From assembly GCA_964480865.1 (NCBI GenBank), contig CAYZRP010000008.1, forward strand, positions 9,080-73,079: a stretch of 64,000 nt of DNA. Direction: 5' to 3'. The stretch is from an uncultured Anaerolineales bacterium. Its GTDB lineage: Bacteria > Chloroflexota > Anaerolineae > Anaerolineales > UBA6663. Positions 1,621 to 60,570 of the stretch are shown one piece after another. The first letter of the stretch is position 1. Each line of letters begins with the position of its first letter. Both the position numbers and the translations under genes were made by a program. The notes under the pieces were generated by a model. That model had not been told where the DNA came from. It ran no database searches and was given only the letters and a program-made list of their open reading frames with translations.

Positions 1621-1697
1621 AGCGACGAACGAAGAAGGACGAATGACGAAGGTTGTGTGAGACGACCTTCGTCATTCGTCCTTCGTCGTTCGTCGCT
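1621..1697. repeat. GACGAAN-heptamer hairpin element, copy A
   Basis: Imperfect palindrome agcgacgaacgaagaaggacgaatgacgaaggt ... accttcgtcattcgtccttcgtcgttcgtcgct. It sits 3 nt after the ATPase stop and about 20 nt from the stop of the convergent methyltransferase, so it could act as a bidirectional terminator. Confidence 0.8.
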
Positions 1698-13221: not shown

Positions 13222-13226
13222 TCCTG

Positions 13227-13281
13227 ACCCACAACAAAAGAGCCCGACGTGCCAGGCACGTCGGGCTCTTTTGTTGTGGGT
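13227..13281. terminator. Bidirectional intrinsic terminator between smc and mtnA
   Basis: Perfect 25-bp-arm palindrome ACCCACAACAAAAGAGCCCGACGTG-ccagg-CACGTCGGGCTCTTTTGTTGTGGGT, with U-rich tracts in both orientations. Confidence 0.8.
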
Positions 13282-14348
13282 CAACCCCGCACGAGCGGCG
13301 CCAGAGTCTCCGAAAACGGCGGGCGCGCGATGCCGTGCTCGGTGATGATGGCCGTGATCAGGTCGTGGTCGGTGACGTCGAAAGCCGGGTTGTACGCGGC
13401 CACGTTGTCGGGCGCCATCGGCCGCTCATACCACATGCGCTTCAGCTCATCGGGCTGGCGCAGCTCGATCGGGATCGCAGAGCCATCCGGGCAAGCCAGA
13501 TCGACGGTCGAGGTCGGGGCGCAGATGTAGAACGGGATGTTGAAACGCTTCGCCAGGATCGCGACACCCAGCGTCCCGATCTTGTTGGCCGAGTCGCCGT
13601 TGGCGGCCACGCGGTCGCAGCCGACCAGGACGGCCTGCACCCAGCCGTTCTTCATCACCGTGGCGGCCATGCTGTCGGTGATCAGGGTGACGTCGATGCC
13701 CGCCTGGCTCAACTCATAGACGGTCAGGCGCGCGCCCTGGAGGAGCGGCCGGGTCTCATCGGCGAAGACCTTGAAGCCATAGCCACGCTCATGGCCGAGG
13801 TACATGGCCGCCGTGGCCGTGCCGTACTTCGACGTCGCCAGCTGGCCGGCGTTGCAGTGCGTGAGCAGGCCGTCGCCGGGCTTGAGGAGGCTCAGCGCGT
13901 GCTCGCCGATGGCACGGTTGGTGCGCATGTCGATGGCCTTGATCTCGTGGGCTTCAGCGATCAGGGCACGCTTGACCTCAACCACGCTGGCGCCCGGCAG
14001 CGCGTCCAGACAATGCTGCATCCGATCCAGCGCCCAGAACAGGTTGACGGCCGTCGGGCGCGAGGAGGCCAGGTGCGCCCGGGTTGCCGCGAACGCAGCG
14101 CGAAACCCATCGAGATCCGCGTCGGGGAAGTCGTGCAGCACCGCGCACAGTCCGTAGGCGGCAGCGATGCCGATCGCCGGCGCCCCGCGAACGCGCAGCG
14201 CGTGGATGGCCTCCCAGATCGCGTCAACGTTGCGCAGTCGCAGCATCACGGTCTCGCCCGGTAATCGAGTCTGGTCGATCAGCACGAGCTCGCCGGTGTG
14301 CTCGTCGTAGTCCACGGTTTCGATCTGCAGGATATTGGGTGTGCTCAC
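13281..14348 (-). CDS. mtnA: S-methyl-5-thioribose-1-phosphate isomerase
   Basis: 355 aa, eIF-2B-related family. Matching segments: LRVRGAPAIGIAAAYG, RPTAVNLFWAL and VLVGCDRVAANGDSANKIGT. Confidence 0.9.
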   Translation of the reverse strand: MSTPNILQIETVDYDEHTGELVLIDQTRLPGETVMLRLRNVDAIWEAIHALRVRGAPAIGIAAAYGLCAVLHDFPDADLDGFRAAFAATRAHLASSRPTAVNLFWALDRMQHCLDALPGASVVEVKRALIAEAHEIKAIDMRTNRAIGEHALSLLKPGDGLLTHCNAGQLATSKYGTATAAMYLGHERGYGFKVFADETRPLLQGARLTVYELSQAGIDVTLITDSMAATVMKNGWVQAVLVGCDRVAANGDSANKIGTLGVAILAKRFNIPFYICAPTSTVDLACPDGSAIPIELRQPDELKRMWYERPMAPDNVAAYNPAFDVTDHDLITAIITEHGIARPPFSETLAPLVRG

Positions 14349-21778: not shown

Positions 21779-21786
21779 TGAAGGGA

Positions 21787-21852
21787 GGCGTCAGGCGTCG
21801 GGCGTCGGGCGTCTGTTCACGCAACGCGCCCCAGCCGATAGGTCTGACGCCT
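21787..21852. repeat. (GGCGTCR)x4 heptamer array plus an inverted partner
   Basis: ggcgtca ggcgtcg ggcgtcg ggcgtct at 21787..21814. The inverted copy tctgacgcct at 21843..21852 abuts the ankyrin gene stop. Confidence 0.7.
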
Positions 21853-22519: not shown

Positions 22520-22529
22520 AACGAAAAAA

Positions 22530-22560
22530 GGTCGGGTCAGGGCTGGGCCCTGACCCGACC
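22530..22560 (-). terminator. Intrinsic terminator after the PucR-family gene
   Basis: GGTCGGGTCAGGGC-tgg-GCCCTGACCCGACC. On the minus strand it is followed by TTTTTTCGTTTT. Confidence 0.8.
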
Positions 22561-22575
22561 TTTTCGGCGAACGAC

Positions 22576-24545: not shown

Positions 24546-27488
24546 ATGACGGAACTCATCCACTGCCTGATTGTCTCGCCCCGCCGTCCGGACGACCCAC
24601 GATCGCGCGGGCTGCTGCACGATGCTCACTCGTTGGGCCTCGAAGCCGTGACCCATATCACGGCATCGGATCTGTATTTCATTGAGGGCCCGCTCACCGC
24701 TCACGACCAGGACAGGCTCGTCTCGTTCCTGTTGAGTGATCCTGTGGCAGAGAAAGCGGAGTGGCGCCGCTTCGATCACCCCGCCCACGCGCCAAAATCC
24801 GCCCAACACATCATTGAAGTCGCGTATCGGCCGGGTGTCACGGATCCTGTGGCCGAGCAGATCGTGCGCGGCGCGCACCAGCTCGGCGTCAACGCCGTAG
24901 CCCGCGCGGCCACTGGGTTGCGCTTCGACGTGCGCTCGAAGACCGGCGACCCTGCATTGCTGCATCAACTCGCGCGCGGCCTGCTCGCGAACGCCGTCAT
25001 CCAGCACTACACGCTGGGCGACATCGTGCCGCACTTCCCGGCCGTCGCCCAGAGCACCGACGCCACCGAGACGATCGCGGTGCGCGGCCTCGACGACGCG
25101 GCGCTGCTCGCGCTTTCGCAGGACAGACGCGCGGCCCTCGACCTCGCCGAGATGCGCGCCATCCAGGCCTATTTCGCGACTGAGGGTCGCGACCCGACCG
25201 ACGTCGAGTTCGAGATGATCGCTCAGACCTGGAGCGAGCATTGCGTGCACAAGACGTTCAAGGCGAGGATCGAGGTGACAGGCGACGAAGGACGAACGAC
25301 GAACGACGAAGGTCGGATGGCCGCACAACCTTCGTCGTCCGTCAGTCGTCCTTCGTCTGTTGACGGTCTCCTCAAGACCTACCTCCGCTCGGCGACCGAG
25401 GCGATCAAGGCGCCGTGGGTGCGGTCGGCGTTCGTCGACAACGCGGGCATCCTCGACTTCGACGACGATTTCGAGGTGTCGTTCAAAGTCGAGACCCACA
25501 ACCATCCGTCCGCGATCGAGCCGTTCGGCGGCGCGAACACGGGGTTAGGCGGCGTCATCCGCGATGTGCTCGGCGTGAGCGCGCGGCCGATCGCGTCGAC
25601 TGACATCCTCTGCTTCGGACCGCAAGACACCGAGCCGGCGACCTTGCCGGGCGGTGTGCTGCACCCGCGCCGCGTGCGCTCGGGCGTGGTGGCCGGCATC
25701 AAGGACTACGGCAACAAGATCGGGCTGCCGACTGTCAATGGCGCCATCTGGTACGACCCCGGCTACACCTCGAATCCGCTGGTGTTTTGTGGCTGTGTCG
25801 GGATCGCGCCCAAGGATAAACATCCACGCACGCCACAATCCGGCGACCGCGTCATCGTCCTCGGTGGTCGGACGGGGCGCGACGGCCTGCGCGGCGCGAC
25901 GTTCTCGTCGATGACCATGGACGCGCAGACCGGCGAGGTCGCCGGCGCATCGGTGCAGATCGGCGACCCGATCGTCGAGAAGGGCCTGATCGAAGTCATC
26001 GTGCGCGCCCGCGACCTCGGGCTGTACCACGCCATCACCGACTGCGGCGCAGGCGGGCTCTCGTCGGCGGTGGGCGAGATGGCGTCGGGCTGCGGCGCCG
26101 ACGTCGACCTGGCGACGGTGCGACTGAAGTACGCGGGCCTCGCGCCCTGGGAGATCTGGCTATCGGAGGCGCAGGAGCGCATGGTGCTGGCCGTGCCGCC
26201 CGACTCGCTCCCAGCCCTGCAATCCATCTGCGCGACGTTCGACGTCGAACTGACGGACATCGGCGTTTTCAATGAGAGCGGCCGGTTGCGCGTGGCGTAC
26301 GGCTCGAAACCCGTGCTCGACCTCGCGAACGATTTCCTGCACGACGGCATCCCGCAGCGCCAACTCAGAGCGACCGTCAACGCCGCGTCACCGCGCGCGG
26401 CGACGACAGGCGTTACCCCTGCGGGCGTCTCCTACGGCCAGTTGCTGCTGCGGCTGCTGCGTGACGCGAACATCGCCACAAAGGCTGATGTCATCCGGGT
26501 CTACGACCATGAGATCCTGGGCGGCACCATCGTCAAGCCGCTGACCGGCGTGCAGCACGACGGTCCGGCGGACGCATCCGTCATCAAGCCAACCGGCACG
26601 GCGGGCACACGCGGCATCGTCCTGAGCAATGGGCTCAATCCGGACTTTGGCAAACTCGATGCGTACCGCATGGCCTGGAGCGTCATCGACGAGGCGATCC
26701 GCAACGCCGTCGCCGTCGGTGCCGATCCGAGCCGCATCGCCATCCTCGACAACTTCTGCTGGGGCGATCCGACCCGGCCGGAGACCCTCGGCAGTCTGCT
26801 CGAAGCCGCGCGTGGTTGCCACGACGCCGCCGTGTTCTATGGCACGCCCTTCATCTCCGGCAAGGACTCGCTCAACAACGAGTACCTGGGCACGGACGGG
26901 AAGCGCCACGCGATCCCGCCGACGCTGCTCATCTCTGCCATCGGCCTGATCGACGACGTCCGTTCCGCCGTCACCAGTGACCTCAAGGCCGCGGGTCATC
27001 ACCTCTTCCTGATCGGCGACACCCGCGACGAACTGGGGGGCGCGCATGTTTGGAAGACTTTGAGAGAGACGCGGGAAGAGGGAGAAGAGAGGGGCGCCGT
27101 GCCGGGGCCGGTGGAAGGGGCCTTGGCGCTCTATCGGGCATTGCACAGTGCGATCACGCAGGGCCTGGTGGCGAGTTGCCATGACCTGAGTGAAGGCGGG
27201 CTGGCGGTAGCGGCAGGTGAGATGTGCATCGGCGGACGGCTGGGGCTGGCGTTGACGCTGCCTGACGGTGAGCCGTTCGTGCAACTGTTCAGCGAGTCGA
27301 ATGGGCGGTTGTTGGTCGAGGTGGCGCCCGCACATCTGGATGCGTTCGTCGCTCTATTCGAGAGCCTGCCTGTGAAACAACTGGGTCTGATCACCGACTC
27401 GGGCCGGTTGACGATCTCAACCCGCGCCGAGGTGATCGTCGATGTGCAGGTGTCGGACATGGTGAAAGCATGGACCAACCCGGCCTGA
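24546..27488 (+). CDS. purL: FGAM synthase subunit PurL with two N-terminal PurS-like domains (PurS-PurS-PurL fusion)
   Basis: 980 aa, versus about 740 for small PurL as I recall it. Residues ~3-75 and ~88-160 each look PurS-like: ...FLLSDPVAEKAEW, and EVAYRPGVTDPVAEQI...LLANAVIQHYTL. PurL core motifs include TWSEHCVHKTF, ETHNHPSAIEPFGGA and SGKDSLNNEY. Confidence 0.9.
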   Translation: MTELIHCLIVSPRRPDDPRSRGLLHDAHSLGLEAVTHITASDLYFIEGPLTAHDQDRLVSFLLSDPVAEKAEWRRFDHPAHAPKSAQHIIEVAYRPGVTDPVAEQIVRGAHQLGVNAVARAATGLRFDVRSKTGDPALLHQLARGLLANAVIQHYTLGDIVPHFPAVAQSTDATETIAVRGLDDAALLALSQDRRAALDLAEMRAIQAYFATEGRDPTDVEFEMIAQTWSEHCVHKTFKARIEVTGDEGRTTNDEGRMAAQPSSSVSRPSSVDGLLKTYLRSATEAIKAPWVRSAFVDNAGILDFDDDFEVSFKVETHNHPSAIEPFGGANTGLGGVIRDVLGVSARPIASTDILCFGPQDTEPATLPGGVLHPRRVRSGVVAGIKDYGNKIGLPTVNGAIWYDPGYTSNPLVFCGCVGIAPKDKHPRTPQSGDRVIVLGGRTGRDGLRGATFSSMTMDAQTGEVAGASVQIGDPIVEKGLIEVIVRARDLGLYHAITDCGAGGLSSAVGEMASGCGADVDLATVRLKYAGLAPWEIWLSEAQERMVLAVPPDSLPALQSICATFDVELTDIGVFNESGRLRVAYGSKPVLDLANDFLHDGIPQRQLRATVNAASPRAATTGVTPAGVSYGQLLLRLLRDANIATKADVIRVYDHEILGGTIVKPLTGVQHDGPADASVIKPTGTAGTRGIVLSNGLNPDFGKLDAYRMAWSVIDEAIRNAVAVGADPSRIAILDNFCWGDPTRPETLGSLLEAARGCHDAAVFYGTPFISGKDSLNNEYLGTDGKRHAIPPTLLISAIGLIDDVRSAVTSDLKAAGHHLFLIGDTRDELGGAHVWKTLRETREEGEERGAVPGPVEGALALYRALHSAITQGLVASCHDLSEGGLAVAAGEMCIGGRLGLALTLPDGEPFVQLFSESNGRLLVEVAPAHLDAFVALFESLPVKQLGLITDSGRLTISTRAEVIVDVQVSDMVKAWTNPA
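25284..25357. repeat. GACGAAN-heptamer hairpin element, copy B, in frame inside purL
   Basis: gacgaaggacgaacgacgaacgacgaaggt-cggatggccgcaca-accttcgtcgtccgtcagtcgtccttcgtc. It is translated as DEGRTTNDEGRMAAQPSSSVSRPSS. The loop core ATGGCCGC.CAACC is shared with copy D. Confidence 0.8.
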
Positions 27489-27982
27489 CGATCCGACACG
27501 CCAGCGAGGACGATGCCGAGATGTGGCTTGCGCTCGCGCGGCGCATCGACGACGAGACACGCTTCATGATGTTCGAGCCCGGCGAACGCGTGACGACTGT
27601 CGAAGAGCAGCGTTCTCGCTTTCGCGCGATGAAGGCGACGGGCAACCAGGTCATGTTCGTGGCCGAGGTCGGTGGCGAACCGGTGGGTTACCTCGGCGCG
27701 ATGGGCGGGCATTTCAACCGGACCCGGCACAAGGTGTACGTCTTCGTCGGCATCCGCGAGGGCTTTCAGGGCCAGGGCATCGGCACGGCACTCTTCACCG
27801 AGTTGGAGGTCTGGGCCCGCAGTTGGGGCGCGCATCGGCTCGAACTGACCGTGATGCCGCACAACGCCGCCGGGCTCGCGCTGTACAAGAAGATGGGCTT
27901 CGACATCGAGGGCACGTCGCGACAGAGTCTTTGCGTCGACGGCGTGTATGTGGACGAGATCATGATGGCCAAGATCCTATGA
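27470..27982 (+). CDS. GNAT-family N-acetyltransferase embedded between purL and purQ
   Basis: Motif A FQGQGIGTALFTELEVWA. The start overlaps the purL 3' end by 19 nt, and the stop overlaps the purQ ATG (ATGA). Confidence 0.8.
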   Translation: MDQPGLTIRHASEDDAEMWLALARRIDDETRFMMFEPGERVTTVEEQRSRFRAMKATGNQVMFVAEVGGEPVGYLGAMGGHFNRTRHKVYVFVGIREGFQGQGIGTALFTELEVWARSWGAHRLELTVMPHNAAGLALYKKMGFDIEGTSRQSLCVDGVYVDEIMMAKIL

Positions 27983-28761
27983 CGACACCGCGCGCCTTGA
28001 TCCTGCACGCTAACGGCACCAACCGGGACGGCGACGTCGCGGAGGCGCTGCGCCTCGCCGGCGCTGAGCCCGAGATCGCGCACCTCAACACCCTGCGACA
28101 AGACGGGCGTCCCTGGGCCCAGTACCAGATGCTCGTGCTGCCGGGCGGCTTCGCCTATGCCGACGCGCTCGGCGCAGGCCGGCTGATGGGCCTCGACCTG
28201 CGCACGTACTTCGCCGACGAGATGGCGGCCTTCATCGAGAGCGGCAAGCCCGTGATCGGGATCTGCAATGGCTTCCAGACTCTTGTCAAAGGTGGCTTTC
28301 TGCCGGGGCTCGATGCCGACCATGGTCGTCCTTATGCGACGTTGACCTTCAACGCCAGCGGGCACTTCGAATGCCGCTGGGTCACGCTGCGAGCGCGCTC
28401 GCGCCACTGTCTGTGGACACGTGGCCTGAGCGAGTTGATCGATTGCCCGATCGCTCACGGAGAAGGCAACTTCACGCTGGCCAACCCATCGCTGCTGGCG
28501 GATCTCAACGTCGACGATCAGATCGCGCTGGTCTATGCGCGACCCGATGGCGGGCCGGCCGACGAGCGCTATCCGGATAACCCGAACGGCTCGATCGCCG
28601 ACATCGCCGGCGTGTGCAATCCGGCCGGCAACGTCCTCGGCCTGATGCCTCACCCGGAGAACCACATCTACTCTCACCAACATCCGCACCACACCCGTGG
28701 CTTTGCGGGTCGCCTCGGCCTGGCGCTGTTCCAGAACGGCGTGAAAGCGACGGGAGCGTAG
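27979..28761 (+). CDS. purQ: FGAM synthase glutamine amidotransferase subunit PurQ
   Basis: Start at MTTPRALILHANGTN within listed ORF 27523..28761. Catalytic GICNGFQ, and a C-terminal HGEGNF...MPHPE triad region. Confidence 0.9.
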   Translation: MTTPRALILHANGTNRDGDVAEALRLAGAEPEIAHLNTLRQDGRPWAQYQMLVLPGGFAYADALGAGRLMGLDLRTYFADEMAAFIESGKPVIGICNGFQTLVKGGFLPGLDADHGRPYATLTFNASGHFECRWVTLRARSRHCLWTRGLSELIDCPIAHGEGNFTLANPSLLADLNVDDQIALVYARPDGGPADERYPDNPNGSIADIAGVCNPAGNVLGLMPHPENHIYSHQHPHHTRGFAGRLGLALFQNGVKATGA

Positions 28762-28809
28762 AGCGTAGAGCGTGGAGCGTGGAGCGTAGAGCGTGGAGCG
28801 TGGAGCGTG
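28754..28809 (+). repeat. Tandem heptamer array (GAGCGTR)x8
   Basis: gagcgta gagcgta gagcgtg gagcgtg gagcgta gagcgtg gagcgtg gagcgtg. The first unit contains the purQ stop TAG (28759..28761). Confidence 0.85.
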
Positions 28810-28829: not shown

Positions 28830-28882
28830 GACTACCTGACTACCTGACTACTTGACTACTTGACTAAACGACTAACCGACTA
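28830..28882 (+). repeat. Tandem octamer array (GACTAMYY)x6.5
   Basis: gactacct gactacct gactactt gactactt gactaaac gactaacc gacta. It runs directly into the purC ATG at 28882. Confidence 0.85.
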
Positions 28883-31512: not shown

Positions 31513-32915
31513 CCGATCATCCCCAACATGAATGCGGCGTGCTGGGCATCTACGCGCCGAACGAGGACGTTGCCCGGATGGCGTTCTTCGGTCTGTATGC
31601 CCTGCAGCACAGAGGCCAGGAGGCCGCTGGCCTGGCGGTCAGTGATGGCCACGCCATCCGACTGCACAAAGATGTTGGCCTTGTCTCACAGGTCTTCACG
31701 CCGACCAATCTGGCGCCGATGAGCGGAAACTTCGCCATCGGACACACACGCTATTCGACGACCGGCTCATCGAATGCGCGCAACGCCCAGCCCTACGTCA
31801 TCGAGACCATCCACGGCCCCGTCGGGCTCGCGCACAACGGCAACCTGCTCAACACGGCTGAATTGCGCCGTGGGTTACTGGCTCGAGGCATCGGGCTGCA
31901 GGCCGGATCCGACAGCGAAGTCATGATCATGATGCTGGCCGGCGCCCAGGGAGACACCTGGGTCGACCGCATCCAGGACACGATGCCAAAATGGCGCGGC
32001 GCCTACTGCCTCGCGATCCTGACCAACGACGGCGTCTTTGCCGTGCGCGACCCGTGGGGCTTTCACCCGTTGAGCGTCGGCCGCCTGCCCAATGGCGGCC
32101 ACGTCGTCGCCAGCGAGACCGGCGCGCTGCACACGCTCGGCTGCCAGGCGATCCGCGAGGTCAAGCCGGGTGAGATCGTGGCGCTGACCGACAGCGCGTT
32201 GCGCGTGCGGCAGGCGCTGCCGGCGGAGAAGCAACTCGCGCGCTGCACGTTCGAGCACATCTACTTCTCGCGACCCGACAGTTTCTGGGATGGGCTCAGC
32301 ACGCACCAGGTGCGCCAGCGGCTGGGCGAGGAACTCGCGCGCGAGGCGCCGGCCGACGCCGACGTCGTCATCCCCGTGCCCGACTCGGCCACACCGGCCG
32401 CCATCGGCTACTCTCAGACCAGCGGCATCTCCTACAACGATGGCTTCATCAAGAACCGCTACATCGGCCGGACCTTCATTCAGCCGACGGACTCCCTTCG
32501 CAAGCAAGGCGTCGCGCTGAAGTTCCTGGCGCTCGAGGAGAACCTGCGCGGTCAGCGCGTGATCGTGATCGACGACAGCATCGTTCGCGGCACGACCTCC
32601 GGCCCGCTCGTGCGGTTGCTGCGCGAGGCCGGCGCGCGCGAGGTCCACATGCGCATCACCTGTCCGCCGATCGCGCACCCGTGCTTCATGGGCGTCGACA
32701 TGGGCACTTACAACGAGCTGATCGCCCATCGGCTCACGATCGACGAGATCCGCGATCACATCGACTGCGACAGCCTGCACTATCTCTCGATCAACGGCAT
32801 GATGAACGCGCTCGGTCGGACGGGTGGCTACTGCAACGCCTGCTTCACCGGCGTCTATCCGCTCGACGTCGACCCGAGCCAGACCAAGACCGGGTTCGAA
32901 CGATCGATCGCTTGA
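31509..32915 (+). CDS. purF: Amidophosphoribosyltransferase
   Basis: N-terminal propeptide followed by the nucleophile (HECGVLGIY), HTRYSTTG, and the PRPP loop VIVIDDSIVRGTT. Confidence 0.92.
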   Translation: MTDHPQHECGVLGIYAPNEDVARMAFFGLYALQHRGQEAAGLAVSDGHAIRLHKDVGLVSQVFTPTNLAPMSGNFAIGHTRYSTTGSSNARNAQPYVIETIHGPVGLAHNGNLLNTAELRRGLLARGIGLQAGSDSEVMIMMLAGAQGDTWVDRIQDTMPKWRGAYCLAILTNDGVFAVRDPWGFHPLSVGRLPNGGHVVASETGALHTLGCQAIREVKPGEIVALTDSALRVRQALPAEKQLARCTFEHIYFSRPDSFWDGLSTHQVRQRLGEELAREAPADADVVIPVPDSATPAAIGYSQTSGISYNDGFIKNRYIGRTFIQPTDSLRKQGVALKFLALEENLRGQRVIVIDDSIVRGTTSGPLVRLLREAGAREVHMRITCPPIAHPCFMGVDMGTYNELIAHRLTIDEIRDHIDCDSLHYLSINGMMNALGRTGGYCNACFTGVYPLDVDPSQTKTGFERSIA

Positions 32916-32975
32916 TTGCTGATTGATGATTGCTGATTGAACGCCAATCAGCAATCAGCAATCTTCAATCAGCAA
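32913..32975. repeat. TGATTGC-heptamer hairpin at the purF-purD junction
   Basis: tgattgc tgattga tgattgc tgattga - acgcc - aatcagc aatcagc aatcttc aatcagc aa. The first heptamer contains the purF stop codon. Confidence 0.85.
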
Positions 32976-32989
32976 TTGAATGGGGCCGC

Positions 32990-40650: not shown

Positions 40651-40786
40651 AGAAACCGGGAGTGCGAACGGCGCGTCTCGGTCCATGAGAACCGTCATTC
40701 GCACTCCCGGTTTCTTATCGACCTGACGCGCCGTTCGCACTCCCGGTTTCTTATCGACCTGACACGTCGTTCGCACTCCCGGTTTC
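40651..40786. repeat. 27-bp perfect inverted repeat plus a 36-bp tandem array (2.7 copies)
   Basis: AGAAACCGGGAGTGCGAACGGCGCGTC (40651..40677) is the exact reverse complement of 40725..40751. Tandem units lie at 40689..40724, 40725..40760 and 40761..40786, sharing the core TTCGCACTCCCGGTTTC. Confidence 0.85.
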
Positions 40787-40808: not shown

Positions 40809-43445
40809 ATGCGTCGACTGTGGGCACCTCTGCTGGGCGCCGGGCTTGTGGTCGCGATCCTGGCCCCGCTCCTGGGCACCAACCTGATCCTCGCCCGCGG
40901 AGACATGTTCCTGTACTTCTATCCGTACTGGGACGCCCGGGCCGAGGCACTGCGCGCGCTCCGCCTGCCTTTGTGGACACCCGATGTGTTCATGGGCGTG
41001 CCCTTCCTGGCGAACCCTCAGACCGGCGTCCTCTACCCACTCAACTGGCTCGTCGCGCCGTTCAGCGCTCCCGTGGCGGTGAAGATCAGCCTGGGCCTGC
41101 ACGCTCTGCTCGGGTGGCTGGGCATGGCCGGCCTCGCCCGTCGCAGCCTGTCGCTGAGCCGGCCCGCGGCCGTGCTGTCTGCCACGACCTTCGCCCTCGG
41201 CGGGTATCTGCTGGCCCAGGCCGAACACGTCAACCAGTTCCAGGCTCTGGCCTGGTTCCCGTGGCTGTTATGGGCGCTGACCTCGCGCTCGTTGTCAACC
41301 ACCCGACGCCTCTTGCTGACGGGCCTTGTCGTGGCGCTGCAGATTCTGGCCGGTCACACGCAGAGCGTGGTCATCTCGGGACTAGGGGCTGCGCTGTGGG
41401 TCGTGACCGAGCGCGTGGCCGGCACCTCCGGGCGTTGGACGACCCGCCTGGTCGCCGCAGGCCGCGCCCTCCTGCCGTTGATCGGTGCTGCCCTCCTCGC
41501 CGCCCTGCTCGCGGCCGCTCAGTTGGTTCCCACCGCTGAGTTGCAACAACTCTCACTGCGCAGCGGCGGCCTTGAGTGGCGCGACGCCGTGTCGTTCTCG
41601 TTGGATCCGCGCCTGCTCAGCCTCGCACTGCTGCCCGGCTACTCGCGTAGCCTGTTCACGGAGTTCGTGGCCTCGCCCGGATTGATCGCTCTGGGACTCG
41701 CCGTGATCGGGTCTGCTGCCGCCGACCGACGCCGCTGGCCGATCCTGGCCGTCACGCTGGTCGGTCTCGGTTTCGCGTTCGGCGCATACGATCCGGTCTA
41801 CGCCGGGCTGGCCTTCTTCCCGCCCTTCAATCTCTTTCGCGTCCCCGCCCGCTGGCTGTTCCTCTTCGCCGCCGGTGTGGCGCTCCTGGCGGGCCTGGGC
41901 CTGGATGCGTTGAAGGTCAGTTCACGACGCGCCCGATGGGCGGCCGCTGGGGCCGCGGTGGTCATCCTCGCCGGAGTCGCTCTGTCGATCGGCCGGACCC
42001 CGGCCGGTGAGACCGGCCCGATCGGCGCGCCCGCCTGGCTCGACCTCGTCGGCTGGGGTGTGGCCCTGGCCGTGCTGCTTGCCCTGCTCTGGCAAAACAC
42101 CAGCTCGCTCGGATCCTGGCTGGCGTTGTCCGCGGTTGTGCTCGAGATCGGCCTCGGCGCTCGCGCGTTGCCGATCCTCGCCAATCTGACGGCGCCCGAA
42201 GCCTACGCGAGCCTGCGCCCCGCTCTGCTTCAACTGCTGGTTGACCCTGCCCGTTCGACAACCGATGGACCGCCGCCCGGCCGGGTCGTGTCGATGTCGG
42301 CTCTGCAGTTCGACCCCGGCGATCTGGGTGAACTGCGCACCCTCTACGGGCCACAGCTTTCGCCGGCGGGCCTCGAGACCCTGATCGTCGCGACCAAGCA
42401 CAAGGAAGTGCTCTCGCCCAATCTCGCGCTGACCTGGCACGTGCCCAGCGTCGATGGCTTCGACGGCGGCATCTTGCCGACGCGCGCGTACGCCGAGTTC
42501 ACGTCGCTCTTCACCGGCGAGCTCTCGAGCGATGGACGCCTACGCGAGCACGTGACCGCGGCGCCCGATCCGCGCTGGCTGGCGCTCGTCAACGCCCGCT
42601 GGTTGATCGCCGACAAGACCGGCGACGTCTGGCTCGATGGCGTGTACTACGACACGCTGCTCGCCCGACCCCTCGCGCCCGATGAGCGCGTCAACCTCAC
42701 GATTGATCCCGCGTTTCCGGCGGATCGACTTGGCGTGCTTTCGGTCGACGGAGGACGGTTGACGATCACCCGGGGCGAGTCGCGCGCCAACCTCACTTTC
42801 GAGGCCGGCCATAGCCTGCTCGATCTGCCTTTCGCGCCCGAAGCCATCGAGCTCTCCGGGCCTACGACCTTTGAGGCGCTGACCGTCATCGCCACACGTT
42901 CAGGCGCTTTCCAGTCGGTGCCGTTGCGCGCCTACCGGCTGGCGCACAGCGGCGATGTCAAGATCTATGAAGTGCTCGACCGACTGCCACGTGCGTTCGT
43001 GGCCAGGGACGTCGCTCAAGTGGAGACCACAACCGACATCCTCAACCGCATGCGCGACCCGGCCTACTCGCCGACAGACCTGGCCTTCTTGCAGCCTGGT
43101 CTACGCGCACTTCCACAGGCGACGACGGCGCCGTCGTCGGTGCAGTTCAGCGAATATTCGGCGGAGCGGATCGTCTTGAAGGCGATGGGGCCCGGGTTGT
43201 TGGTACTGACCGATGCGGCCTATCCGGGCTGGAAGGCAACGGTCGATGGAGACGAGACGCCGATCGTCACGACCGACGTCGTCTTTCGCGGAGTCGTGCT
43301 CGGGCCGGGTGAGCACGTCGTGGTCTTCACCTTCGCGCCGTCGTCTGTGACGATCGGGCTGACGGTCTCGCTGGCCGCTGTTGCGCTCTGGCTGGTGGTG
43401 GCTGCCGTCGATGGGCGCCGCTCAGTGCCCCGACGTGGCCATTAG
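40809..43445 (+). CDS. YfhO-family polytopic membrane protein
   Basis: 878 aa. N-terminus GDMFLYFYPYW...LPLWTPDVFMGVPFLANPQTGVLYPLNWL and many TM helices are typical of YfhO. Confidence 0.75.
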   Translation: MRRLWAPLLGAGLVVAILAPLLGTNLILARGDMFLYFYPYWDARAEALRALRLPLWTPDVFMGVPFLANPQTGVLYPLNWLVAPFSAPVAVKISLGLHALLGWLGMAGLARRSLSLSRPAAVLSATTFALGGYLLAQAEHVNQFQALAWFPWLLWALTSRSLSTTRRLLLTGLVVALQILAGHTQSVVISGLGAALWVVTERVAGTSGRWTTRLVAAGRALLPLIGAALLAALLAAAQLVPTAELQQLSLRSGGLEWRDAVSFSLDPRLLSLALLPGYSRSLFTEFVASPGLIALGLAVIGSAAADRRRWPILAVTLVGLGFAFGAYDPVYAGLAFFPPFNLFRVPARWLFLFAAGVALLAGLGLDALKVSSRRARWAAAGAAVVILAGVALSIGRTPAGETGPIGAPAWLDLVGWGVALAVLLALLWQNTSSLGSWLALSAVVLEIGLGARALPILANLTAPEAYASLRPALLQLLVDPARSTTDGPPPGRVVSMSALQFDPGDLGELRTLYGPQLSPAGLETLIVATKHKEVLSPNLALTWHVPSVDGFDGGILPTRAYAEFTSLFTGELSSDGRLREHVTAAPDPRWLALVNARWLIADKTGDVWLDGVYYDTLLARPLAPDERVNLTIDPAFPADRLGVLSVDGGRLTITRGESRANLTFEAGHSLLDLPFAPEAIELSGPTTFEALTVIATRSGAFQSVPLRAYRLAHSGDVKIYEVLDRLPRAFVARDVAQVETTTDILNRMRDPAYSPTDLAFLQPGLRALPQATTAPSSVQFSEYSAERIVLKAMGPGLLVLTDAAYPGWKATVDGDETPIVTTDVVFRGVVLGPGEHVVVFTFAPSSVTIGLTVSLAAVALWLVVAAVDGRRSVPRRGH

Positions 43446-57069: not shown

Positions 57070-57518
<449 letters not shown>

Positions 57519-59620: not shown

Positions 59621-59679
59621 GACGAAGAACGAATGACGAACGACGAATGCTCATTCGTCGCCGTCATTCGTCTTTCGAC
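59621..59679. repeat. GACGAAN-heptamer hairpin element, copy C (short form)
   Basis: gacgaagaacgaatgacgaacgacgaatg-ct-cattcgtcgccgtcattcgtctttcgac. It lies in the divergent spacer between the FAH gene and the methyltransferase-like gene. Confidence 0.75.
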
Positions 59680-59684
59680 CTCGC

Positions 59685-60512
59685 ATGTTACCATGCTCCA
59701 TCGTGCGACGACCTTCAGCGCGGCCCATCGGCCAACCCACGCGCGGCAAGACTGCGCCAAACAGACTGCGCAAGACCGATATCTTCCTCGCGCTGGCATT
59801 TCCAGAGTTCGTCCGGCACCTGCCCGGGCTCTACATCGACCTGGGTTACGGGGCGTATCCCGTCACCTCCGTCGAAACCCTGGTCCGGCTGCGAGCGTTC
59901 AACCCGGAACTTCGGGTGGTGGGCGTTGAGATCGATCCGGAGCGGGTTGCCGCCGCCCTGCCCGACCGCCAACCCGGGCTCGACTTTCGCCTGGGCGGCT
60001 TCAACCTGCCGCTCGAGCCCGGCGAGCGCGCGGCCGTCGTGAGGGCCTTCAACGTCTTGCGGCAGTACCCGGAATCCGACGTTCCTGGGGCGCTTCAAGC
60101 GCTCGCGGAGGGCATGACCGAGCACGCCCTGCTCATCGAAGGCACTTCAAGCCCCACCGGGCAACTGATGACCTTCAACCTCTTCCAGCAACACGCCAGG
60201 CGCCTCGAGACGCTCGGGCTCGTCCTGGCTCCCAGCCTTCATCGTGATTTCGCGCCGCGGCAGTTGCAGCCCGTGCTGCCGAAGAATTACATCCACCATG
60301 CTGCGCCCGACGGCGCGATTGACGCCTTCTTTGGCACGTGGACGAAAGCCTGGTCCGCAGCACGCGCACACGGGCAGGATCTGCGCCAGGTCTTTTCGGC
60401 CTCTGCGCTGCGATTGCGCGATGCCGGCTATGCGCTTGACCCGCGCCCGGCCCTTCTGCGTCGCGGGTTCTTGTGGCTCAAATCGCCGTGGCCGCTGAGA
60501 AACGACGAATGA
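59685..60512 (+). CDS. Putative class I methyltransferase-like protein
   Basis: YIDLGYGAYP...VVGVEID resembles SAM motif I and post-I. The start is uncertain. The last three codons and the stop lie inside repeat copy D. Confidence 0.5.
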   Translation: MLPCSIVRRPSARPIGQPTRGKTAPNRLRKTDIFLALAFPEFVRHLPGLYIDLGYGAYPVTSVETLVRLRAFNPELRVVGVEIDPERVAAALPDRQPGLDFRLGGFNLPLEPGERAAVVRAFNVLRQYPESDVPGALQALAEGMTEHALLIEGTSSPTGQLMTFNLFQQHARRLETLGLVLAPSLHRDFAPRQLQPVLPKNYIHHAAPDGAIDAFFGTWTKAWSAARAHGQDLRQVFSASALRLRDAGYALDPRPALLRRGFLWLKSPWPLRNDE

Positions 60513-60570
60513 CGAATGACGAAGGTTGAATGGCCGCCCAACCTTCGTCATTCGTCCATCGTCATTCGTC
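60501..60570. repeat. GACGAAN-heptamer hairpin element, copy D
   Basis: aacgacgaatgacgaatgacgaaggt-tgaatggccgccca-accttcgtcattcgtccatcgtcattcgtc, between convergent genes. Confidence 0.8.

Follow-up and report, generated by a model that had tools for sequence, protein, structure and literature searches.

A 64,000-nucleotide stretch of DNA from an uncultured Anaerolineales bacterium (contig CAYZRP010000008.1; the whole stretch is referred to as the window) carries a 74-bp palindrome built of heptamers, here called copy B, in frame within the gene purL. We consider it probable (roughly 0.7) that copy B is a dispersed non-coding repeat that arrived in a PurL loop tolerant of insertions, where its translation yields a disordered segment with no role in PurL. 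It would thus belong to a family of heptamer palindromes that is genome-specific and dispersed, and would simply be translated after its entry into the loop, and it is most likely a neutral or selfish repeat, analogous to the Rickettsia palindromic elements (RPEs). The host gene codes for a PurS-linker-PurL fusion and belongs to a 66% G+C bacterium of the class Anaerolineae, since its open reading frame (ORF) scores 587.4 bits against the NCBIfam PurL model TIGR01736 (curated cutoff 525.75) and the Pfam domains PurS, FGAR-AT_linker and AIRS/AIRS_C are present on nearly all of the 120 homologues listed (62-100% identical). On the 980-residue ORF itself the PurS matches are weak, below cutoff, and confined to residues 89-157 in its N-terminal part; it has no glutaminase domain, and a PDB search matched PurL structures down to E = 9e-93. 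The few named organisms among the 120 homologues are Anaerolineae, Thermoflexales or Chloroflexota metagenome-assembled genomes (MAGs).

Copy B consists of two 30-nt arms that are 90% complementary and lie 14 nt apart (coordinates in Table 1). The heptamers of the left arm are GACGAAG, GACGAAC, GACGAAC and GACGAAG, and those of the right arm CTTCGTC, GTCCGTC, AGTCGTC and CTTCGTC. Both arms fall inside the purL ORF, and the encoded peptide, DEGRTTNDEGRMAAQPSSSVSRPSS, stands in frame between SEHCVHKTFKA and VDGLLKTYL, which bears out an earlier reading of the letters alone (hereafter the original prediction) that had proposed a palindrome inserted in frame in purL. A 29-nt arm pattern allowing up to three mismatches matched four times in the window and never in 100 dinucleotide-preserving shuffles. 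The RNA of the copy B region is predicted to fold with an energy of -56.2 kcal/mol (z = -4.9), and 0 of 200 shuffles were equally stable. An Rfam scan of the window at the gathering threshold gave no match in this region, its sole match being a tRNA at 57070-57144. Translation of copy B should give rise to the tryptic peptides TTNDEGR and MAAQPSSSVSRPSSVDGLLK.

The original prediction had also held that all stop triplets are missing from this copy. This is correct for the plus strand, which has no stop in any frame; the minus strand has one TGA. Nor can the missing TGA be taken as a sign that stops were purged. The intergenic copies of the family in the window (A, C and D, described below) already have 3, 3 and 1 open frames out of six, or 7 of 18 in total. 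Moreover, since a 7-nt unit does not divide into whole codons, one heptamer spacer in three occupies codon position 1, in copy B those of units 1 and 4 only, and the unit-4 spacer is G in every copy with a GGT centre. Therefore, a single variable position needed to be something other than T. The lack of GACGAAT units in copy B fits tolerance of the element; as an argument for purging it is weak and is no evidence. Three special fates of the hairpin were considered and rejected: programmed bypass or splicing, as neither a stop nor a frameshift calls for it and plain translation is the default; an intein, for which 18-25 amino acids are too short and the motifs absent; and a role of the copies as intrinsic terminators, as inspection by eye found no T-run after the hairpins.

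Comparison with close relatives indicates that the copy B segment is a lineage-specific gain and not an ancestral loop. At the same site, L001 (purL 85.4% identical in nucleotides) has 39 nt, RIGVTADGGPPTA, as do L204 and L206 (39 nt, purL 79% identical), and L205 (79%) has 48 nt. L207, an independent ENA assembly with a purL 99.2% identical to that of the window, has 93 nt and carries copy B with one substitution inside it. In the tree drawn from pairwise identities, ((L001, L002), window), to which (L204, L206) and L205 are outgroups, the 39-nt relatives imply that the short loop is ancestral and that the window lineage gained 54 nt. The segment is thus an indel relative to close orthologues, as the original prediction had supposed; however, the roughly 24 residues it counted as added come down to a net gain of 18 over the nearest uninserted orthologues. 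The exact placement of the 54 nt is ambiguous owing to the repeats, and the outermost codons of copy B (DEG...RPSS) replace an ancestral D-G-G...P-P-T-A turn. The normal spacer of about 10 residues given in the original prediction is right and agrees with the large PurL of Salmonella, which reads SEHCRHKIFNADWI, and with the shortest Anaerolineae forms, in which HKTFKA and VDGLLKTYL are 9-13 residues apart.

A second, independent gain was found in L002 (purL 84.1% identical), which has 99 nt at the site. Its palindrome, of the GACGGTG type (GACGGTG GACGGCA GACCGCT ... AGCGGTC GGTGGTC TACCGTC), differs from copy B and has an unrelated centre. The gain of 60 nt lies at the codon position of copy B, after GAC-Gxx-GGA-C, the outer arms of the element are the local ancestral sequence, and the same palindrome is present in a separate Logan assembly.

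The presence of copy B in L207 speaks against a misassembly, which is ruled out as far as can be done from assemblies without reads. Two Logan contigs, L208 and L209 (ERR14790699 and ERR14790739), are more than 90% identical to the window purL and both end inside copy B; their last 60 nt hold seven left-arm units and a GACGAATGA, which would be an in-frame stop. We did not accept these as a disrupted allele, as contigs that stop inside a repeat bear the signature of a de Bruijn-graph tangle, and their ends probably reflect such a tangle with another copy of the family, less likely a disrupted or longer allele.

The intergenic relatives assumed by the original prediction do exist in the window as copies A, C and D, and the layout of the family is (GACGAAN)3-5, a variable centre and (NTTCGTC)3-5. 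Copy A is flanked by two convergent genes, one for a P-type ATPase and one for a methyltransferase, and sits between their 3' ends; copy C lies directly upstream of the start (59599, minus strand) of a fumarylacetoacetate (FAA)-hydrolase gene; and copy D has ORF 59685-60512 on one side and, on the other, the 3' end of a gene of the SBP_bac_5 (solute-binding-protein) type. Copies B and D have the same heptamer type and share 17 of 20 central bases (GGTCGGATGGCCGCACAACC in B, GGTTGAATGGCCGCCCAACC in D); this similarity cannot be chance, so that copy B is a homologue of the intergenic copies. The common centre of B and D, together with the four pattern matches noted above, supports membership in a dispersed palindrome family, as originally proposed. 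A related centre, GGTTGAACGGCCGTTCAACC, occurs in the metagenome contig L151. Arrays of at least three GACGAA units, counted without copy B, number 4.7 per 100 kb in the window versus 0.46 in 85 other Anaerolineae loci, and the density of GACGAAN copies, four in 64 kb, is about ten times that of those loci.

Table 1. Coordinates of copy B, its host gene and its relatives in the window.
Feature	Coordinates	Strand	Basis or content
Copy A, GACGAAN family, 33-nt arms, one mismatch	1621-1697		Sequence inspection, repeat search
purL, PurS-linker-PurL fusion, 980 aa, host of copy B	24546-27488	+	ORF, translation, profile matches
Copy B, 74 bp	25284-25357		Inverted-repeat search
Left arm of copy B	25284-25313	+	Four GACGAAN heptamers then GT; encodes DEGRTTNDEG
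Net gain of 54 nt (18 aa, RTTNDEGRMAAQPSSSVS) over the 39-nt ancestral loop	25293-25346	+	Alignment with L001, L204 and L206
Centre of copy B, CGGATGGCCGCACA	25314-25327	+	Read from sequence
Right arm of copy B	25328-25357	+	AC then four NTTCGTC-type heptamers; encodes PSSSVSRPSS
Copy C, short, degenerate family member	59621-59679		Sequence inspection, flanking-ORF annotation
Copy D, closest relative of copy B	60504-60570		Sequence inspection, centre comparison

Several smaller observations concern these elements and their surroundings. The TGA of the first GACGAAT unit of copy D (60510-60512) is the stop of ORF 59685-60512 (275 amino acids, without a Pfam match), so that copy D supplies the stop of this ORF, if the ORF is real. 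A TTCGTC-type array at 1852-1879 of L005, a distant Anaerolineae MAG with 64% PurL identity, indicates that the GACGAAN unit also occurs outside the window lineage. A GACGGT 'array' at window position 42747 is ordinary coding sequence (SVDGGRLTI) and was discarded as an element. Strong inverted repeats without heptamers are also present in the window: a perfect palindrome with 29-nt arms and a 1-nt centre (13225-13283), a hairpin with 18-nt arms just downstream of an ankyrin gene (22526-22564), and a perfect inverted repeat whose 27-nt halves are separated by 47 nt (40651-40751). At the end of purL, a GNAT acetyltransferase ORF (27470-27982) overlaps the gene and precedes purQ, and the order purL-GNAT-purQ is kept in all close relatives (L001, L002 and L204-L207).

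In an AlphaFold model of PurL built from a 71-sequence alignment (mean pLDDT 76.9, pTM 0.78), strands 239-246 and 271-273 flank a coil in which residues 250-264 have pLDDT values below 50. The insert is thus modelled as the floppy or disordered tip of a beta-hairpin. A low-confidence coil at a hairpin tip would fit the surface loop for which the original prediction suggested checking.

The insert had been presented as a one-off, and this part of the prediction did not hold up: the loop is a class-wide hot spot that has been filled independently by different heptamer palindromes. Across the 120 aligned PurL homologues listed, the slice around copy B varies from 39 to 86 residues. Many of them have there a peptide like WKLEVG...SNLQPPTSNFQ or repeated ISNLQSP at a period of seven amino acids, and these look like translations of other heptamer palindromes. 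The matches listed include 80 Anaerolineae species representatives, the best with 68% amino acid identity to the window PurL. Palindromes at the copy B site in other listed species are of the types TGGAAGT/CAACTTC (L004), GAGATTN (L006) and TGGTAAT (L027), and GACGRTN and related arrays occur there in L008, L010, L011, L012 and L026. Strong stems (score 10 or more) were present at the site in 8 of 68 listed species versus 0 of 340 length-matched control segments of the same genes.

Tandem runs of period 7 are over-represented in these loci. In 1.55 Mb of the listed loci, runs of period 7 numbered 83, versus 34, 24, 14 and 11 at periods 5, 6, 8 and 9, and those within purL cluster at amino acids 245-266, 612-631 and 832-852 of the window PurL, which are the loops that vary most in length across the alignment. 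Loops 612-631 and 832-852 hold heptamer arrays or palindromes in L004, L005, L006, L012, L013, L049, L053, L061, L076 and L079; in L006 a single purL gene is occupied at three sites, and in the window neither of these two loops has a visible repeat origin. The heptamer type resident in purL is 10-40 times enriched in the neighbouring DNA of its own genome relative to other genomes (window, L006, L027 and L012). Each genome has heptamer families of its own, and what occupies purL belongs to the local one.

Genes other than purL are affected as well. A metagenome scan for GACGAANGACGAANGACGAAGG returned at least 120 contigs with the motif, 44 of them with clear palindromes whose centres are very different and whose arms have unequal numbers of units; the arm order among the contigs listed is GACGAA...TTCGTC in 56 cases versus the reverse in 4. 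Fourteen of the 44 palindromes lie within long ORFs that continue without a stop for 240 nt or more to either side, and six of these hosts were confirmed by Pfam: EPSP synthase, a class I/II aminotransferase, isocitrate/isopropylmalate dehydrogenase (with two palindrome copies in one protein), the amidotransferase domain of glutamate synthase, an ABC-F protein and an ABC ATPase. The insert peptides of the confirmed enzymes, DERxTTNDE...SSFVLRPSS, use the same vocabulary as the PurL insert. Two to four heptamer-palindrome segments per protein were seen in L089, an ORF resembling nonribosomal peptide synthetases (NRPS), L099 and L112; examples of multiple inserts are the adenylation region of an NRPS, which has ETMNDERGTMNEARQVSSFIVHRSS plus two others, and the dehydrogenase (Iso_dh) with its two.

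Heptamer arrays change length quickly between close relatives. At 99.2% identity, the (GAGCGTR) array has 8 units in the window versus 5 in L207, the (AGGCGTC) array 4 versus 3, and a GACTACYT 8-mer array 4 versus 3, and copy B has the same length in both. An unchanged copy B is expected if slippage is frequent but single-unit changes within the gene are lethal frameshifts. The first of these arrays is followed by the third in the purQ-purC spacer, at 28754-28809 and 28830-28882 (counterpart in L207 at about 14200-14310). The (AGGCGTC)4 array lies between an ankyrin-repeat gene and an aspartate-kinase gene (window 21786-21813, L001 7233-7260, L002 7228-7255, and L207); its position is conserved in these three relatives, with 3-4 units and point differences. 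The purF-purD spacer of the window (32915-32976) holds a TGATTGC...CAATCAG palindrome with 25-nt arms, and the same family is found in the purF-purD spacer of L204 (20415-20478), whose purL is 79% identical. Because the two share one spacer, some heptamer palindromes are either long-lived or re-created at the same spot.

How copy B came to reside in purL, and why it persists there, can be outlined as follows. The insert would have no function in purL and would be retained since it is in frame and stop-free and its 18 or so polar or disordered residues do no harm at that position. Its length within the gene would be frozen, as slippage by one 7-nt unit would shift the frame. Its arrival is the least certain step. 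We suggest that it was copied in from another member of the family by template switching or gene conversion; this may have been nucleated by the short palindrome of the loop itself, the Gly-Gly-Pro-Pro codons GGN GGN CCN CCN, and by the resemblance between the ancestral sequence, GACGGTGGAC, and that of the element, GACGAAGGAC. The ancestral turn, (D/E)-G-G-P-P-(S/T)-A, is indeed encoded by self-complementary DNA of this form. We favour copy-in, and regard classical cut-and-paste transposition as less likely, because of this self-complementary turn, the likeness of the two sequences, the arrival of two families at the same nucleotide, the absence of a target-site duplication and the differences in centre between copies. 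A selfish mobile element, as the selfish palindrome of the original prediction might suggest, is not supported: there is no target-site duplication, no transposase is among the nine annotated ORFs flanking copies A, C and D, the centres differ between copies, and slippage in situ or gene conversion may have done the work.

A more general proposal, which we put forward tentatively and think more doubtful than not, is that an active, sequence-directed process in Anaerolineae, carried out by an enzyme or by a replication mechanism, builds and re-seeds genome-specific heptamer palindromes, with a preference for pre-existing short palindromes such as the Gly-Gly-Pro-Pro codons. A resident copy at a loop would then periodically be overwritten by the dominant family of its genome. 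If such a process exists, it would be a major, hitherto undescribed source of recurrent and convergent loop insertions in housekeeping enzymes such as PurL, AroA, LeuB/Icd, GltB and ABC ATPases throughout the class.

Several points weigh against copy B as a dispersed repeat that was inserted and is harmlessly translated. No direct duplication (target site) was found in the flanks of copies A-D, no transposase is among the nine annotated ORFs flanking copies A, C and D, and no filled/empty polymorphism of the copy B site was found within one species. The centres vary widely between copies of the family, as a transposed unit seldom does. Even before the gain the loop looked like a heptamer array, and the GACGRT arrays at the site in L010, L011, L012 and L026 may have grown from native V-T-I-D-G-G codons, so that part of the phenomenon may be growth in situ. 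The recurrence of palindromes at this site, and the coordinated change of their arms in a clade whose PurL proteins are 70-87% identical, could mean that a hairpin is selected for. That the insert is translated is predicted from the reading frame, and the AlphaFold model, with its mean pLDDT of 76.9, is of moderate quality only.

Among the other explanations, insertion by a dedicated enzyme differs from our preferred one only in the manner of spread. The family would be a non-autonomous element of the REP/RAYT type (repetitive extragenic palindrome and its associated tyrosine transposase) or of the IS200/IS605 type, inserted into hairpins of single-stranded DNA by an HUH tyrosine transposase acting in trans. 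An HUH/RAYT-like enzyme is a serious alternative for the spread, albeit an unlikely one on balance. The strict orientation of the arms among the listed contigs, the location of dispersed copies at gene ends as in REPs, and elements that start with GACG and finish with CGTC speak for such an enzyme, and intragenic REPs are documented (PMC3733652). However, the GACG and CGTC ends are paired with each other here, whereas CGTC-tagged REPs have an unpaired tag, stems of 8-9 bp and loops of 4-5 nt (PMC3733652), and the variable centres and unit numbers and the lack of a transposase among the nine flanking ORFs annotated weigh against it too.

An origin in situ, in which the loop is a hypervariable region of low complexity and the palindrome was built on the spot, with nothing imported, by replication slippage of the native heptamer-like codons plus a template switch within the strand (quasipalindrome correction), appears improbable for copy B, although much about the site seems suited to it. 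In its ancestral form, GACGGTGGACCGCC, the turn already resembles a heptamer and is a palindrome, the GACGRT arrays of L010, L011, L012 and L026 adjoin native GTGACGATTGACGGT codons, and the outer arms of the L002 element match the local ancestral sequence. Heptamer arrays slip fast, with different unit numbers in strains 99.2% identical, and an excess of heptamer simple repeats has been ascribed to polymerase slippage (PMC4692102, PMC4679880). Local slippage thus explains some occupants of the site, namely the GACGRT arrays, but not copy B; it fails there because the centre of copy B is common to copy D. In addition, three other GACGAAN copies lie within the same 64 kb, at about ten times the density of other genomes, and point mutation of all units in both arms from GACGGTG to GACGAAS is implausible.

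For copy B, a selected hairpin of mRNA or DNA or a functional loop is the least likely of the biological explanations, and we think it very improbable that the element makes translation pause once the PurS-linker module is complete, offers a site to an RNase or regulator, or acts through its peptide. Palindromes do recur at the same codon in many lineages, the fold energy is -56 kcal/mol, and the arms change together in the clade with 70-87% identical PurL proteins (WKLEVG..PTSNFQ versus QRSEVG..LTSDLR). Yet the element is missing in the nearest species, 60 of 68 listed species lack a strong stem, neither sequence nor peptide is conserved, and similar elements occupy other PurL loops, other enzymes and intergenic spacers. 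As the occupant belongs to the repeat family of its own genome, the arms would covary without any selection. An assembly artefact, whether a chimeric join or a repeat-induced error in purL, can practically be dismissed, since the NCBI-derived window and the ENA contig L207 agree in length with one base different inside the element, the reading frame is intact, and the L002 element was recovered in two independent assemblies, even if L208 and L209, which break off within the element and show surplus units and a TGA in frame, illustrate that assemblers struggle here.

To our knowledge, in-frame palindromic repeats in essential genes are textbook matter only for Rickettsia, with scattered cases among REPs; RPEs were reportedly described by Ogata et al. 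in 2000, in Science 290:347. Copy B behaves as an RPE does, being an in-frame dispersed palindrome in a conserved protein that is absent from orthologues, and the analogy drawn in the original prediction is apt as a description of this behaviour. In both cases a dispersed palindrome lies in frame in housekeeping genes and is translated, here by prediction, in surface loops compatible with the fold, copies are also intergenic, and no transposase is known. However, RPEs are 100-150 bp long, have a family consensus and are found in Rickettsia only, so that copy B is likened to them by behaviour, without any claim to membership. Here the arms are tandem 7-nt arrays with variable copy numbers and centres, the length is 74 bp, and the host belongs to the Anaerolineae (Chloroflexota), with 66% G+C. 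RPE-4 and RPE-6 are discussed alongside REPs in PMC3733652, where REPs are given stems of 5-13 bp, loops of 2-20 nt and a tetranucleotide GTAG/CGTC tag that is unpaired at one end, and where some REPs inside ORFs add residues to known proteins and the CGTC class has no dedicated transposase. The elements described here resemble REPs and bacterial interspersed mosaic elements (BIMEs) as short palindromes at gene ends, some of them intragenic, and copy B ends in CGTC. They differ in having stems of 25-33 bp made of heptamer units; the arms of copy B are 30 nt long, and the GACG and CGTC ends pair with each other in place of a short stem with an unpaired tag.

Small dispersed repeats of cyanobacteria were reportedly treated by Elhai et al. 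in Genome Res in 2008. Together with the bacterial MITEs (miniature transposable elements with inverted repeats) they have been reviewed (PMC10969869), and both are, like copy B, small, non-autonomous, hairpin-forming, dispersed and sometimes in frame in genes. The family in the window lacks the architecture of a MITE: there is no terminal inverted repeat with a target-site duplication in the flanks of copies A-D and no conserved internal sequence, as the centres differ between copies. Heptanucleotide repeats are known as the STRR sequences of cyanobacteria, GGGAATC and GGGGAYT in Xanthomonas and Nostoc, TAACTGA in Beggiatoaceae and (GATAGRA)n in Chloroflexus (PMC4692102, PMC4679880, PMC6749651). 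The present elements share with such simple sequence repeats the 7-nt unit, in tandem runs of at least three with period 7 over-represented, genome-specific units, rapid changes in unit number between close relatives and a location near gene ends, and the known repeats have occasional inverted pairs (Xanthomonas) and occasional intragenic copies. However, those repeats are described mainly as direct intergenic arrays, whereas here the pairs are regularly inverted (56 vs. 4) and 14 of the 44 listed contigs have them in frame in conserved enzymes, in recurrent loops. Within its incomplete coverage, our literature search found no account of heptamer palindromes or inverted heptamer arrays within genes of Chloroflexota.

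Taken singly, the insertion in purL is a curiosity of the RPE kind, and the recurrent, class-wide colonisation of loops is the more interesting part. The same three PurL loops have been hit repeatedly by different families, and two sister lineages carry different elements at the same codon. This is an experiment of nature that tells where proteins can take insertions, and a possible route from non-coding repeats to new disordered protein loops. In practice, the elements break assemblies, inflate the apparent variation in protein length, and can mislead marker alignments and phylogenies of Chloroflexota. Behaviour like that of RPEs is now seen, with striking recurrence, in an unrelated, free-living, high-GC class and with a different kind of repeat; in structure the closest known kind is the heptanucleotide simple repeats, and in function the RPEs and intragenic REPs.

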